Below are positions 17,011 to 29,900 of a DNA stretch of 64,000 nucleotides, piece by piece. This DNA comes from Dictyostelium discoideum. Lineage: Eukaryota. Position numbers and translations under genes: made by a program. Every line of letters starts with the position of its first letter. Positions within the stretch are counted from its first letter, which is position 1. The DNA is taken from positions 4,960,001-5,024,000 of the forward strand of contig CM000154.2 of assembly GCA_000004695.1 (NCBI GenBank). Direction: 5' to 3'. The notes under the pieces were generated by a model. That model ran no database searches, had not been told where the DNA came from, and saw only the letters and a program-made list of their open reading frames with translations.

Positions 17011-18032
17011 TTAAGAAGTACCAGTTTTTGATAATTTTGATAAAACCTCGGCATCAGTTAATAAATTTTCTAATTGCATAAAGTAATGAGGTATAATATT
17101 ATTATTTGATTCTAACATGTGAATTAATAATTTTTCATTCTTCCAATTTGGATGATCAGCTTGTAATGCTCTAACATCATTTTTAATATCTCTATACATT
17201 TTATAAGGATAATGATGAAGTTGATGAAATAATTGAGCACGTTTAAAACAAAATGAACCCAATTCATATTGAATTTCATCAGGTTCATCTTTTGATGTAC
17301 CTTTTAAACGTTTTGGATTTTCAAAATAACCATTCCAAAAATCATCGACTGAATAAGAACGACCTGATAAAAATATGATAATTGTAGCAGCATGTTTAAA
17401 TTTATTACAAGATTCACATGGACCACCAGCGACATAATTGATTTCAATCGATCTAAAGAATGGTCTATGAGTAATATCATGTAAAAATCTATCGTGCCAA
17501 AAACTACTCAATACCAATGCTTCCTTTCTTGATGCTATTAAAGTTTGAATTCTTTTTAAAGAATCTAAAAAGTATTCATCCTTTTCTTGAATTGTTTCTT
17601 TTAGAAATTCCTTATCAAGTATACAACTTATAATATATTGAACGAAAATATCAAATGAATCTCTAATTGTTTTTTTTATAGAAAATTGTTTTGATACCAT
17701 CTCTTTAACTTTATCAGGTTCTTGAGAACTAATATCTACAAATTTCTTTGGTGAAAATGGGGATGATCTCTTTGATGGCGAAAATGGTGAATGAGGCTTT
17801 TTTGATGGTGAATTTGTAGGAGAAGGAGTAGAAGGAATTTGAGAAAAAGGATATGCACTCTTTTTATTCAATTTACTTTTATTAAAATCATCATCGTAAT
17901 CATCATATGGTTCCTCATTACCATAATCTCTTTCATTGTCACTATTATAATTATTTAATATATTATTATTATTATTATTAATATCATATCTTTTATCATT
18001 ATCATTATTATTCTTATTCTTTCTTTGAGATG

Positions 18033-18123
<91 letters not shown>

Positions 18124-20576
18124 ATTATTTTCTTCTTCACTACTTGATTCACATAAATCAGAAGCATCACTATTTACAACGAAATCATTATATTCATATT
18201 CTTCTTGTTTGAAATCATCTTGATCACTTTCTTCATCATCAATGAAATAATTTGATTGATTACTAAATTGGTACAATCTTCTTGCTCTTTCTTTTCTTTC
18301 AAAATCGTTTCTAAATTTTTTACTTTCTTTTTCTTTATCTTTTATTTTTTCCATTCTTTTTTTTAGTTGATCTCTCCATCTTTTTTCCTGTTTTCTAATA
18401 TTTTTCATTGTTTCAGAAAAATCTTCATTTATTTCTTTCATCTCTTTTGGTTTGTTAGGAGTGGTTGAAGTGGTATTGGTATTAGTATTGGCATTGGTAT
18501 TGGAAGTAGTGGTGGTGGTAGTAGTTTCTCTAGGACGTGAATTGTAATCTATTCTAATCTTTTCTGATTTTTTCAATGCTTCATATAGATCATCACAATC
18601 TTTTTCTGTTATATTAATTGGTGTTGTGGGGGTGGAGGTAGTGGTTGAATATTTAGGAAGTGGGTTATAATCTATTCTAATCTTTTCATCTTTTTTCTTT
18701 ACTTCAAATAGATCAGTATCACCAATATTACTTTTTTTAAGTTTCTCAAGTAAATTATTGTCTTTATCTTTTTGAGGTTTAATTTCCTCGAAATTAAAAT
18801 CTAGTTGATCATCATCAATAATACCATAAAAATTATTATCTTTAGTATGATTATTGTTGTTTTCTGTAATAATACTTTTTGTAATAATATTATCATCATC
18901 GTCAATAATACCATAAAAACTATTATCTTGTGTATCTTTTTTGTTGCTCTCTTTAATTCCTGTAATATTACTTTTTGTAATATTATCATCACCAATAATA
19001 CCATAAAAACTATTATCTTGAGTATCATTATCGTCACCACCTATATTTTCAAATCCACTACCATCATCTTCAGGAATTGATGAACTTGGAATTGGTTCTT
19101 TCCAACCCAATACAATAATATTATTGTTATTATCATCATTATCGATATCATCATCATCATTATCATTATCATTATCATTATCATCATCACTATTTTCAAT
19201 ATCTTTTAATTTTTTTAATCTTGATTTAGTTGGTAATTTTTCTTGTTTACTTTGTTTTTCTTTTAATAGTTTTTGTATTGCTTTATTTGTAACGATTTGA
19301 GGATTATGGGTACTTATTAAATCATTTTCAATTGCTTGAGTACTGCTTTCACTTAACATTTTTAATCTTTTTAAAATTTTAAGTTTCTCTTCTTGAGTTT
19401 CTGTATCAACTTGATCATTATCATCTTTTTTATCATATTTATCATGAGGATGATGATGGTGATGCTCATTATCATCATCATCGTCATCAAAGGCATTATT
19501 GGTGTTTTTTCTTTTCTTTATTACTCTACAAGGTGAAATGAGGTCATTTATTTCTTGATATCTTTCATTATCTTTATCTTTATCTTTATCTTTATCTTTA
19601 TCAATATCTTTATCAATATCTTTATCTTTATCAATATCTTTATCAATATCTTTATCTTTATCAATATCAATATCACTATCAATACCATCATCTCTATCAT
19701 CATCTTCATCACCATACTTATTATATTTTGTTGTTGTTACTATTAATTTATTTGTTTTTGGTGATTCTTTAATTTTTACTTTATTTTTTTTATTATTATT
19801 ATTAAAATCACTATCATCATTGCTAATACTATAACCACCACTATCATCACTATCATTAACATTACCATTATCATTATCAATTTCATCTTTAATTTCATAT
19901 AATAATCTATTTTTTGCTTTAAAATTTAATAATAAATCTGAATAAGAATCTAAACAATAAAATAAATTACCATGATATATTGGTCTATCTAAATAACTTG
20001 AAAATGGTAAAACTGTACAATAAACCATTTTTTTAATTTCATTTAAATTCATTATCACTGAATCTACACTTGGAATTAACTCTTTTGAACCATGAATTTC
20101 TAATCTACCACCATCAACCTCTTCTGGTCTATAAATTTTAATTAATTCAATAAATAATCCACCATTAAATTTATCTTTAAAAAATGATGATATTTTATAA
20201 ATTGATGGTATTTTTATTCTTTTTTTTTTTTTTTTTTAAAATAAATAAATAAATAAATAATGAATTTTTTTTTAAAAAAAAAAAAGATTTAATAATTTGG
20301 TTATTTTATTTTATTTTATTTTATTTTATTTTATTTTATTTTATTTTATTTTATTTTATTTTATTTTATTTTATTTTAAAATTACTTTTTATTTTGACTT
20401 TTAAAATCAAATAATTTTATTGTTAAATCTAAAAATAAATCTATACCTTCAAATAATAAACCACCATAAAATTCATAATCTCCAACTACTTTAATAGGTT
20501 TTCCTAACCATTGAGTTTCATTTTTATAAGAATTTATTGGTTCACCATCAAAATCATACTCTATTTTACTACCCAT
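17011..20576 (-). CDS. large low-complexity protein (about 1132 aa) with a conserved Cys-containing C-terminal domain, 2 exons
   Basis: Exon 1 is 20576..20386 (MGSKIEYDFDGEPINSYKNETQWLGKPIKVVGDYEFYGG…SQNK+AA) with donor GTAATT. The intron contains (TTTTA)x19. The acceptor is aaaag and exon 2 is 20218..17011 (3208 nt, frame-consistent). The body holds DKDI/DKDK repeats, poly-Asn (about 30 residues) and acidic runs. The globular C-terminus (…VAGGPCESCNKFKHAATIIIFLSGRSYSVDDFWNGYFENPKRL…) resembles the DUF4211/CCDC82-type domain; this is unverified. The start is uncertain: the alternative is ATG at 20052. Confidence 0.55.
20283..20376. repeat. (TTTTA)n about 19 units inside the intron of the 17011..20576 gene
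   Basis: Direct reading: ttattttattttattttatt…. Confidence 0.9.
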
Positions 20577-20831: not shown

Positions 20832-26090
<5,259 letters not shown>

Positions 26091-26944
26091 TTCATTTGGT
26101 TTGTTTAATGTAGTTTGTTTTAGTAGATTTCCAATTGATAAAACTTTTGTCCAACCTACTGATTTAATAATTTGACTACTATCGTTCTCTGATAAACTTA
26201 ATAAAAAGTTATTTCCTATACTATTATCTGTTACTAAAATTTGATTTTTTAATTGTTGAATAGTGGTATCATTCTTTATATTTAATGATATCGTTTTTTC
26301 ACTATTCGGATATTTTATCTTTTTTTTTTATTTTTATTTTATTTTTTTATTTTTTTTTTGTAATAATAAATAAAATAAATATTAGTAAAAATTTGTAAAA
26401 TTGGCGTTTTTAAAAATTGATGAAAAATTTTTAATTTTTAATACACATACAATACATGTATAATTATCCATTATGGATAATATGTGTTGAAGGTTGCTTT
26501 GGCAATGGTTTAAAAAAAAAAAACAAAAAAAAAAATTTCAAAAGGAGATTTTTTTTTTTTATTTTTTTTTTTAAATTAAATTTTTTTTTTTTTTTTTTTT
26601 TTTTTAAAATTAATTTAATTAAAAAACTAAAAATATTTTTAAATTTTCAAGTCCACATGTAACCTTTTTTATTTAATTTGAAAAAAAAAAAAAAAAAAAA
26701 ATATCATAACTCTGCCAGCAGTGAGATTTAAGTAATTAAACAATTAAAATAAAAAATAAAAAATAAAAATAAAATGAAATTTAAAAAAAAAAACAGTTTG
26801 GTGGTAAAATGAAATTAAAATAAAAAAAAATAAAAAAAATATATTTTAAAAAAAAGGTGGTAAAAAAAAAAAAAAAAAAAAAAAATAATAATAATAAAAT
26901 ATAAAAATAAATTCATCTCTACTCGAATGTAGGATATAGATTTA

Positions 26945-29900
26945 ATGATGATAAAACTTAAAACTATAATTCTCATTTTATTTTTATTTTTTTCTATTTT
27001 TATTAAAACATCTTTTACCCAGAGCCCTTTCGAAAGTAATTATTAAATAATAAATAAATAAATCAAAAAAATAAAAAAAAAAGTAAATAATAATCAAAGT
27101 ACACCTCTAACCATTGATATTATTATGTATTGTTTATTTTAAAATAATATCTTTTTTTTTTTTTTTTATAGTATATTGGGTAAGTCCTACTAAAGGTGTT
27201 GAAAGTATGGGATGTGGATTGGTTAAAGAATTTCCATGTAAAGATATTGGTTCTATAATTGATAAAATAACACCAAATGTATCAACGATTATTAATTTAA
27301 TGGAAGGTGTTTATAGAGGTAATTTTAGTTATTTAATGACAAATTTCGTTATATTATTTAAAGGTGAGGGTAGAGATAAAACAATAATAGATTTAGAAGG
27401 TAGACAAAGATTTACACTTTGTACAATTAGTGATATTCATTTCAAAGATCTTACAATTAAAAATGGTTTTGGTAATGCAATATCTGGAATTTTTGATGGT
27501 GGTGCTATCTATGCATACGATAGTCAAATTCATTTTGTAAACGTTGCATTAATCGATAACACTTGTAGTGCATCAGGTGGTGGTATATTTCTATACAATT
27601 GTATGTATTTTTAAAAAATATTATCATTATTAAATAGTTTATTAATTATAATGTATTAATAATTTGTTTGTTTGTTTTAAAAAAAAAGGTTATTTTAATG
27701 TTGAGCATAGTTTATTTCAAAATAATACAGCAAATAGTGGAGGTGGATTTATATTATTATTATCAGCTTCAAATATTACAAATTCAAGTTTTTTACATAA
27801 TAGAGTATTTCAAGAAGGTAAAGGTGGTGCAATTCAAGTTTTCATTTCATTTATGAGTATTGAACTTTCACTATTTGCTTATAATATTGCACCATATAGT
27901 GGTGCTATTGATATGGGTATGCTATAGGGATTATTATTATATTTAATATAAACATGTTTATTAATATGTATCTTTCTCTTTTTTTATTATTATTATTGTT
28001 AGTTGGTGGAAATTTAACATCAAAATATTCAAAATTTATAGAAAATCATTCAAATATTGGTGGTGGATTTGGACTTTATTTTATATCAAATGTAATATTT
28101 GAAAGTTGTGAATTCATTGGAAATAGAGCAAATAGTACAGGTGGATTATCATTTTTAACAGCTCAATCAATGTTAAGATTTTCATTATGTATTTTTAAAG
28201 ATAACTTTGCACCAAATTGTGGAATCGTTGAATCACATTCAATATCACCACTATTATTTGAATCATGTTCATTCACTGGTGATGTTCCAACAGCTGTTCA
28301 AATTGCACTATATGATAATTATTGTTTTTTAAAAGTTCAAAATTGTCATTTCTCTGAAATTCAAGGTGTTTTAATGTATGCTGATTCAATTTCAAATATT
28401 ATAATTGATTCTTCTTCATTTACAAGTAAATATTATTTTTATTATTAAAATTAATTATAAAAAACAATATATATATACATGTACTAATAATAATAATAAT
28501 AATAAATAAAAAGATGTTTCAAATAGAATTATTGATGTTGGTAATGAAGCAGATATATTAATTATATCAAGTACATTTTATAATATAACAATTGATGAAT
28601 ATTTAGTATCATTATCAAATGGTAATTTTTTAGCATATAATATGGATTTTAATAATAATATTGTATTGGCATTAATTAAATCAAGTGTTGGTGGATCGGT
28701 AACCATCGTTTCAAGTAGTATGTCAAATAATTATGTTTCAACAAGTTTAATTTCATTAAGTAATGGATATAGTGTTTATATTGAAAATTGTGAAGTTAAA
28801 AATAATACTGGCCTATTTAAAGGTTGTTTCATTGATACAGATCATACAGGTTCAGAAACGATAGTACAATCATTGTTTGAGAATAATAGATCACCATTTG
28901 GTCCAATTTTATATTTTTCAAATCCTGAAACCATGCTATCAACAAATTATTCATCAAATTTTAGAGATATTTTATTTTCAAATAATTTCGCAGCCTATTC
29001 TGGTGCATTGGTTTATTTTAGTCAAAATGTGTCATTACCAAATATAAGTTGTACAAATTGTATTTATGATAATAATACTGCAGTATTTGGTGAGTTGGTT
29101 AATAGTGCTTTCTACTCATTCAATGTTTCGATTACACCAGTGATTTACCCATTTCAAGATTTAATAATTGAAATATTTGCATTGGATTTCTTTGGTAATT
29201 TAGTTAGAGGTACTTCTGATTTAGGTTTTTTTGCAATTCCTTGTTCCGATGCTTATGTTGAAGGTAATTTATTTGCTGTATTAAATGAAAATGGTTCTGC
29301 AATATTTTCAAATATTAAATTATCTTCAAATCCAAATTCAATTTGTAATTTAACTTTTCTATCTGTACCAATTGTTTCTGAAAGTAAGTTATTTTATTTA
29401 TATAAATTAAAAAATAATAATAATAATATATCAATAATAATATACTAATATATATATATATTATAGATGGACCAATAACAATACCAATTACATTTTCTTA
29501 TTGTTCACAAGATAGAGAATTAGTTATGATTAAATCAATTTATTATTGTTTAAAAACTATTAAAGTAACATCATTTGTAAAATTTTTAGTTGGAACATTA
29601 GCAGCGATTCTATTGATAATTTTAATAATTTCAGGATTTATATCATTAAAATATAGGAAAAAAAGAGTTATTAGATATTCAAATCCATTATTTTTATGTA
29701 TTATTTTAGTTGGTTGTATTATATTTTTAATTACTATTCCAGTATTATTTGGATCAACTTCTGCAACTTGTAAAATTAGATTTCCAATCATTGTTATTGG
29801 TAGTTGTTTAGTAACTTCATCAGTATTTATTAAACAATTTAGAATTTGGAGATTAATTAAAGATATACAATTATTAAGAGAAACTAATGTTGAAAATAAA

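Follow-up and report, generated by a model that had tools for sequence, protein, structure and literature searches.

Where does translation of a large minus-strand PI3-kinase gene begin, if its long open reading frame contains no ATG before codon 340? The window analysed here is a stretch of 64,000 nucleotides, which is very AT-rich and carries long AAT (poly-Asn) tracts, a composition that is typical of a Dictyostelium-type genome; a tandem-repeat scan returned AAT and poly-A/T tracts only. In the ORF listing, the kinase appears as a minus-strand ORF at 20832..26090, which encodes 1752 amino acids and is given GTG as its start. An initial annotation had proposed that a short, ATG-bearing first exon is spliced to this frame, a proposal that is borne out by orthologues, a paralogue and profile scoring, with splice junctions different from those first suggested.

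Very probably, the gene consists of a 21-nt exon 1 starting at ATG 26471, a phase-0 intron at 26450..26319 and a long exon 2, and is likely to be pikH (Table 1). Under this model, translation would begin at ATG 26471 on the minus strand, with the seven codons MDNYTCI preceding the intron; the 132-nt AT-rich GT-AG intron would be removed in phase 0; and exon 1, joined to exon 2 at 26318, would yield MDNYTCI/IKYPNSEKTISLNI…, a protein of 1835 amino acids.

Table 1. Features of the kinase gene and its preferred two-exon model (window coordinates)
Feature	Position	Strand	Description
Exon 1 (predicted micro-exon), 21 nt	26451..26471	-	ATGGATAATTATACATGTATT; ATG GAT AAT TAT ACA TGT ATT = MDNYTCI
Intron 1 (predicted), 132 nt, phase 0, GT-AG	26319..26450	-	donor GTATGT 26450..26445; acceptor AG 26320..26319
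Exon 2 (predicted)	20832..26318	-	begins ATAAAATATCCGAAT (IKYPN…); residues 8-1835; TAA stop 20834..20832
45-nt segment (15 codons)	26274..26318	-	IKYPNSEKTISLNIK; coding in the preferred model, intronic if acceptor 26275..26274 is used
Exon-2 part of predicted N-terminal ubiquitin-like (β-grasp) domain	26064..26318	-	with exon 1, residues 1 to ~92
GTG (Val)	26088..26090	-	codon 80 of the open frame; internal codon, not initiation site
First in-frame ATG of exon 2	25308..25310	-	Met344 of the 1835-aa model; not initiation codon
PH domain PF00169	24408..24704	-	Pfam, E 4.6e-13, 50 bits (cut-off 25.1)
PI3K helical/accessory domain PF00613 (PI3Ka)	21921..22427	-	Pfam, E 4.2e-31, 108 bits (cut-off 31)
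PI3/PI4-kinase catalytic domain PF00454	20991..21551	-	Pfam, 152 bits (cut-off 27.1)

The open frame and its missing start codon

The GTG at 26090, correctly reported by the initial annotation as the start in the ORF track, is a start by the convention of the ORF tool only: it is listed because bacterial rules take the first ATG, GTG or TTG after a stop, and the homologue alignment shows conserved coding sequence upstream of it. The frame stays open 5' of the GTG to a TAA at 26330..26328, which had been placed near 26331, and a further TAA lies at 26336..26334. The peptide encoded by this upstream part is present as originally quoted, and it contains no Met. The complete open frame has 1831 codons; its first in-frame ATG, at 25310, corresponds to residue 340 (or to residue 337 if counting starts at 26318), so that the description of the PI3-kinase frame as lacking an ATG for about 300 codons is accurate.

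At the Met frequency of the remaining protein (20/1492, 1.3%), the probability of 336 consecutive residues without Met is ~0.01, which rises to ~0.08 once Asn runs are discounted. The Met-free stretch is unusual, and alone it is not decisive as proof of a missing exon. A start at ATG 25310 would lose the conserved N-terminal domain described below. The absence of an ATG from so long an ORF is very probably explained by the location of the start codon on the other side of the intron 26450..26319. A scan for bacterial-type promoters and terminators, which is irrelevant to a eukaryote, gave matches equal to the shuffled expectation.

The predicted first exon and first intron

The start codon of the preferred model (26471..26469), which is the ATG picked in the initial annotation, has an A at position -3 (ATAATGG) and lies in the string ATGGATAATTATACATGTATTGTATGTGTAT, exactly as the initial annotation had quoted it. 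Unspliced, the frame from this ATG reads MDNYTCIVC…, and read-through of intron 1 is ruled out by the two in-frame TAA codons at 26336..26334 and 26330..26328. Removal of intron 1 restores a continuous frame, in which translation from 26318 reads …IKYPNSEKTISLNIKNDTTIQQLKNQIL… and the 1835-aa product has the N-terminus MDNYTCIIKYPNS… / MDNYTCIIKYPNSEK….

The intron runs GTATGT…AAAAAG, and AG 26320-26319 is the first AG downstream of donor 26450. Its GC content is 0.098, compared to 0.19-0.23 for exon 1, the initial 45 nt of exon 2 and the 180 nt that follow them, and a branch-like TACTAAT is found inside it at ~26387..26381. It thus combines a near-consensus donor (GTAAGT/GTATGT), an AG acceptor, short length, AT-rich composition and a conserved position, as expected of a GT-AG intron. 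Counting against the preferred model, AG 26320-26319 is preceded by an A-run, whereas the acceptors of the orthologues are T-rich (TTTAG/AATAG).

Dictyostelium introns are reportedly short, with a mean of ~146 nt, very AT-rich and often located near the 5' end of the gene. Intron 1 is similar to typical Dictyostelium introns in its GT-AG borders, GTATGT donor, length of 132 nt, A+T content of ~90% and position at the extreme 5' end; it differs in the presence of an A-run, rather than a T-run, before the acceptor, and there is otherwise nothing notable about it. Splicing of 26451 to 26318 in vivo is what the comparative evidence, presented in the next section, would predict.

Orthologous and paralogous genes

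The protein search listed no D. discoideum protein, whether orthologue or paralogue; its best relatives are dictyostelid proteins of full length that share all three domains, i.e., DICPUDRAFT_96754 of D. purpureum (P0001; 58% identity) and, at lower identity, the proteins of Polysphondylium violaceum (P0002) and Acytostelium subglobosum (P0004). At the three orthologue loci, we tested every combination of exon 1, GT…AG intron and exon 2 for a match to the deposited protein; it should be noted that these orthologue models, too, are predicted. Each of the three loci yielded a single solution, in which the first exon measures 18, 30 or 12 nt and is followed by a phase-0 intron. In D. purpureum, the 18-nt exon 1 (ATGGATTATATTTGTATT) and a 70-nt intron give MDYICI/GTAAAT…AATAG/ITLPNG, with exon 2 beginning ATTACTCTTCCCAAT; in P. 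violaceum, a 30-nt exon 1 and a 60-nt intron give …INCN/GTACGT…CATAG/IYFLLD; and in Acytostelium, a 12-nt exon 1 (ATGAACTGCATT) and a 71-nt intron give MNCI/GTAAGT…AATAG/VYIYNL. At the nucleotide level, the first exons end …TGT ATT/GTAAAT, …TGT AAT/GTACGT and …TGC ATT/GTAAGT, respectively. In all three orthologues, the position of the intron and its phase 0 correspond to the alignment position of 26451/26318 in the window.

The product of exon 1 and exon 2 in the window (MDNYTCIIKYPNSEKTISLNIKNDTTIQQLKNQIL) is colinear with the N-terminus of the D. purpureum protein (MDYICIITLPNGRTININITNETSVQQLKNQIL), and comparison of the N-terminal peptide with PI3K homologues, the check that the initial annotation had put forward, aligns the orthologue N-termini with exon 1 plus exon 2. 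The dictyostelid orthologues share with the window gene a first exon of 12-30 nt that ends after Cys-Ile or Cys-Asn codons, the phase-0 GT-AG intron, an exon 2 that is predicted to begin within strand β1 of an N-terminal ubiquitin-like (UBL) domain, and the same downstream domain order. They differ from it in intron length (60-71 nt vs 132 nt), in the acceptor (T-rich TAG vs AAAAAG) and in their low-complexity tracts, with an overall identity of 58% (D. purpureum) or lower.

With the N-terminal domain as query, an exhaustive HMM search also identified stand-alone proteins of ~100 aa (P0018, P0019 and P0020; E 2e-9 to 2.5e-5), which begin MTDYNCIFVLPNG… or MADYNCIIKLPNGG… and carry the motif M-x-D-Y-N-C-I-I/F-K/V-L-P-N-G; no Pfam family was above threshold in these three proteins. 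The gene for P0019 (L004 2001..2466, plus strand) has the structure ATGGCCGATTACAATTGTATT/GTATGT…TTTAG/ATAAAATTACCAAAT, that is, a 21-nt exon 1 encoding MADYNCI, a GTATGT donor and a phase-0 intron, as in the window gene, and its exon 2 begins with the same seven bases (ATAAAAT) as the window sequence at 26318. Because the micro-exon and the intron are shared by the P0019 gene and the window gene, they predate the separation of the paralogues, and the same 21-nt exon, GTATGT donor and phase-0 intron indicate a common origin of the kinase N-terminal domain and the small UBL genes. Together with P0017, these proteins make up a set of ~100-aa stand-alone dictyostelid UBL proteins homologous to the kinase N-terminal domain; unlike the window protein, they consist of a single domain and have no kinase fusion.

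Two further gene models, P0003 (eukprot) and P0021, begin within the UBL domain or downstream of it, with MVKIPKPQLRKSKSDL… and MGQFKQQVIVAANTAG…, respectively. Most likely, their micro-exons were missed by the gene callers.

The predicted N-terminal ubiquitin-like domain

The fold of the N-terminal domain was predicted for the D. purpureum orthologue rather than for the window protein, using AF2 with an alignment of four sequences. The model has a mean pLDDT of 72, with 80-87 over the first 50 residues, and contains β1 (3-8), β2 (14-19), α1 (25-35), β3 (43-46), α2 (69-79) and β5 (86-93). In a Foldseek comparison to the PDB, the top matches were ubiquitin, ubiquitin variants, ISG15 and Hub1 (E ~3e-4, TM 0.7-0.79 per target), and the predicted orthologue N-terminus accordingly displays a ubiquitin-like β-grasp topology. 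In Pfam, the ubiquitin family PF00240 stayed below its gathering threshold (16.4 bits vs a cut-off of 25.4), as did OTU1_UBXL (17.3 bits vs 22.7). The predicted domain is thus ubiquitin-like by fold only, and not a member of the PF00240 sequence family.

Mapped onto the gene, the model assigns most of strand β1 to exon 1; the remainder of β1, the turn and β2 (TISLNI) fall within codons 1-15 of exon 2. Because β1 spans the exon junction in the model of the orthologue, the micro-exon would be structurally necessary for the UBL domain.

Comparison of possible splice junctions

We enumerated all upstream combinations of ATG, GT and AG that give a full-length in-frame product (n=50) and scored the plausible models against a profile built from seven homologues, with the window sequence left out. 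The preferred model, with donor 26450 and acceptor 26319, scored 87.3 bits and exon 2 alone 77.0 bits, so that exon 1 adds ~10 bits to the family-profile score. That the gene has no micro-exon, and that translation starts inside the long ORF, whether at ATG 25310 or at a codon other than ATG (e.g., GTG 26090), is next to inconceivable. The GTG is the nominal start of the ORF tool, and the orthologue models P0003 and P0021 also begin downstream of the N-terminal domain; however, these short models look like cases of missed micro-exons, and ~90 residues upstream are conserved across Dictyostelia as a folded UBL domain. Initiation at non-ATG codons is not known as a routine mechanism in this group. 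The junctions of the initial annotation, i.e., donor GTGTAT (26446, phase 1) and acceptor TTTTAG, which had been located at about 26215 and actually lies at 26239..26234, are a little less improbable, and still very hard to credit. The resulting product, MDNYTCIV-L-TDNS… (1808 aa), is in frame, and TTTTAG is a good-looking acceptor. Nevertheless, this model scored only 53.0 bits with donor 26446 and acceptor 26234, its intron position is unlike that of every homologue, and the 84 nt that it deletes are open frame of exon-like composition. Lost with them would be 29 residues (IKYPNSEKTISLNIKNDTTIQQLKNQILV), which all orthologues conserve and which correspond to the last part of β1, to β2 and to helix α1 in the predicted fold. 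Homologues and profile scores alike favour the phase-0 donor GTATGT 26450 and the acceptor AG 26320-26319 in place of these two sites. The closest competitor by score (83.6 bits, 3.7 bits below the preferred model) retains acceptor 26319 and uses donor GTATTA 26444, which gives a phase-0 intron of 126 nt and an in-frame product of 1837 aa, MDNYTCIVC/IKYPN…. We consider its use improbable: as a donor, GTATTA is weaker than GTATGT, exon 1 ends directly after Cys-Ile or Cys-Asn in all orthologues and in the paralogue, and no homologue has an equivalent of the additional Val-Cys.

More serious, although still unlikely, is the possibility that the micro-exon and the GTATGT donor are joined, in the sole transcript form or in an isoform, to a downstream acceptor, AG 26275-26274, through a phase-0 intron of 177 nt. 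The product, MDNYTCI/NDTTIQQLK…, has 1820 aa and begins MDNYTCINDTTIQQ…. The sequence ATATAAAG/AAT is acceptable as an acceptor, and this is the only one of the 50 models that places the catalytic Lys of the IIFK motif at residue 1586, the position used in the literature (see below). Conversely, this AG is the third one downstream of the donor, a phase-0 AG is absent from the corresponding position in D. purpureum, and the model (71.7 bits) is 15.6 bits below the preferred one. The 45-nt segment that would be skipped has an exon-like GC content of 0.20 and no stop codon, and adds ~15 bits to the profile score. Its 15 codons, which would encode β2 of the UBL fold, are aligned in all orthologues and paralogues, among them D. 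purpureum (ITLPNGRTININIT) and P0019 (IKLPNGGIVKVFF); the tblastn match with P0018 reaches 26309. The 15-residue offset in numbering could equally stem from a difference in repeat length between the reference and the window.

An ATG farther upstream, at 26976 (MRII…), was rejected: it comes into frame only if a weak donor and an intron of 600-690 nt are assumed, and no homologue supports it.

Kinase architecture and probable identity of the gene

The catalytic domain PF00454 and the helical domain PF00613 both exceed their gathering scores, which places the window protein in the PI3K family. Pfam found neither a Ras-binding domain (PF00794) nor a PI3K C2 domain (PF00792) in it. Between the PH and helical domains, the region 22818..23759 (minus strand) has an AF2 pLDDT of 49, reaching ~70-84 over a β-rich part. 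The PDB matches of this low-confidence model were all class I p110 chains, including the isolated C2 domain of p110α, suggesting a divergent PI3K-type C2 domain that was missed by Pfam. Possibly, an RBD-like segment is located ahead of this putative C2-like region.

PikH of D. discoideum (DDB_G0291093) has been described as a type-1-like PI3K without a Ras-binding domain (PMC3255550), and a kinase-dead allele, K1586A, was built from the DDB_G0291093 coding sequence (2026 preprint, 10.64898/2026.05.11.724005). The window protein is similar to the pikH product in having PH, helical and kinase domains, no Ras-binding domain detectable by Pfam, and a catalytic Lys near 1590-1600; the IIFK Lys has position 1601 in the 1835-aa product, and 1586-1601 depending on the model. 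Exon 1 with donor 26450 and one in-frame acceptor, 26275-26274, gives K1586 exactly, and the composition and poly-Asn tracts of the window gene are Dictyostelium-like. Given the description of a type-1-like kinase without a Ras-binding domain and the catalytic Lys at 1586-1601, D. discoideum pikH is the most likely identity of the gene, an identification made from domain content and the K1586 numbering. Exact look-ups of the 1835-, 1837- and 1820-aa products found no match in a protein collection that seemingly contains no D. discoideum proteins. Word-index protein searches with the N-terminal domain and with the C-terminal 539 aa gave nothing useful, and these searches also missed the orthologues that were already known.

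The published numbering and the existing annotation

Since K1586 is consistent with exon 1 and its donor, the existing annotation very probably contains the micro-exon, and the feature described here is already known: the intron is a conserved and ordinary one at the 5' end of a gene that has been annotated and studied. Compared with the published pikH numbering, the model supported by the orthologues has 15 more residues ahead of the catalytic Lys, and since that numbering fits only the model with acceptor 26275/26274, this acceptor may be used by the reference annotation or by a real isoform. There is an appreciable chance, somewhat short of even, that the reference pikH coding sequence (with an implied length of 1820 aa) carries a mis-set acceptor at 26275/26274, or that both acceptors are used, which would toggle the integrity of the UBL domain. 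If so, the reference coding sequence would lack 15 codons of the β1-β2 hairpin, and synthetic rescue constructs would carry a broken UBL domain. The removal of part of the UBL domain by the acceptor implied by the published numbering could affect the reading of PikH rescue experiments.

Two AAT-repeat tracts (poly-Asn, ~40-50 codons each) lie within the part of exon 2 that links the UBL and PH domains, at 25310..25622 and 25905..26030 (minus strand). Because the length of poly-Asn tracts varies between strains, residue numbers may differ between assemblies.

Beyond correct annotation, the model matters little, a tiny first exon and a short AT-rich intron being routine in Dictyostelium, and a full-length pikH coding sequence is already in experimental use. 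Its practical value is in the exact junction coordinates, and in the conservation of the micro-exon and intron, both among Dictyostelia and in a small paralogous gene for a UBL protein. The one finding that deserves wider notice is that the coding sequence used in published work may differ from the preferred model by 15 codons.

Downstream of the kinase gene, the neighbouring ORF (17011..20058, minus strand) encodes at least 1015 aa and contains a DUF4211 domain (E 5e-30). In the ORF listing, it is also without an obvious ATG start and, like pikH, it may have upstream exons.
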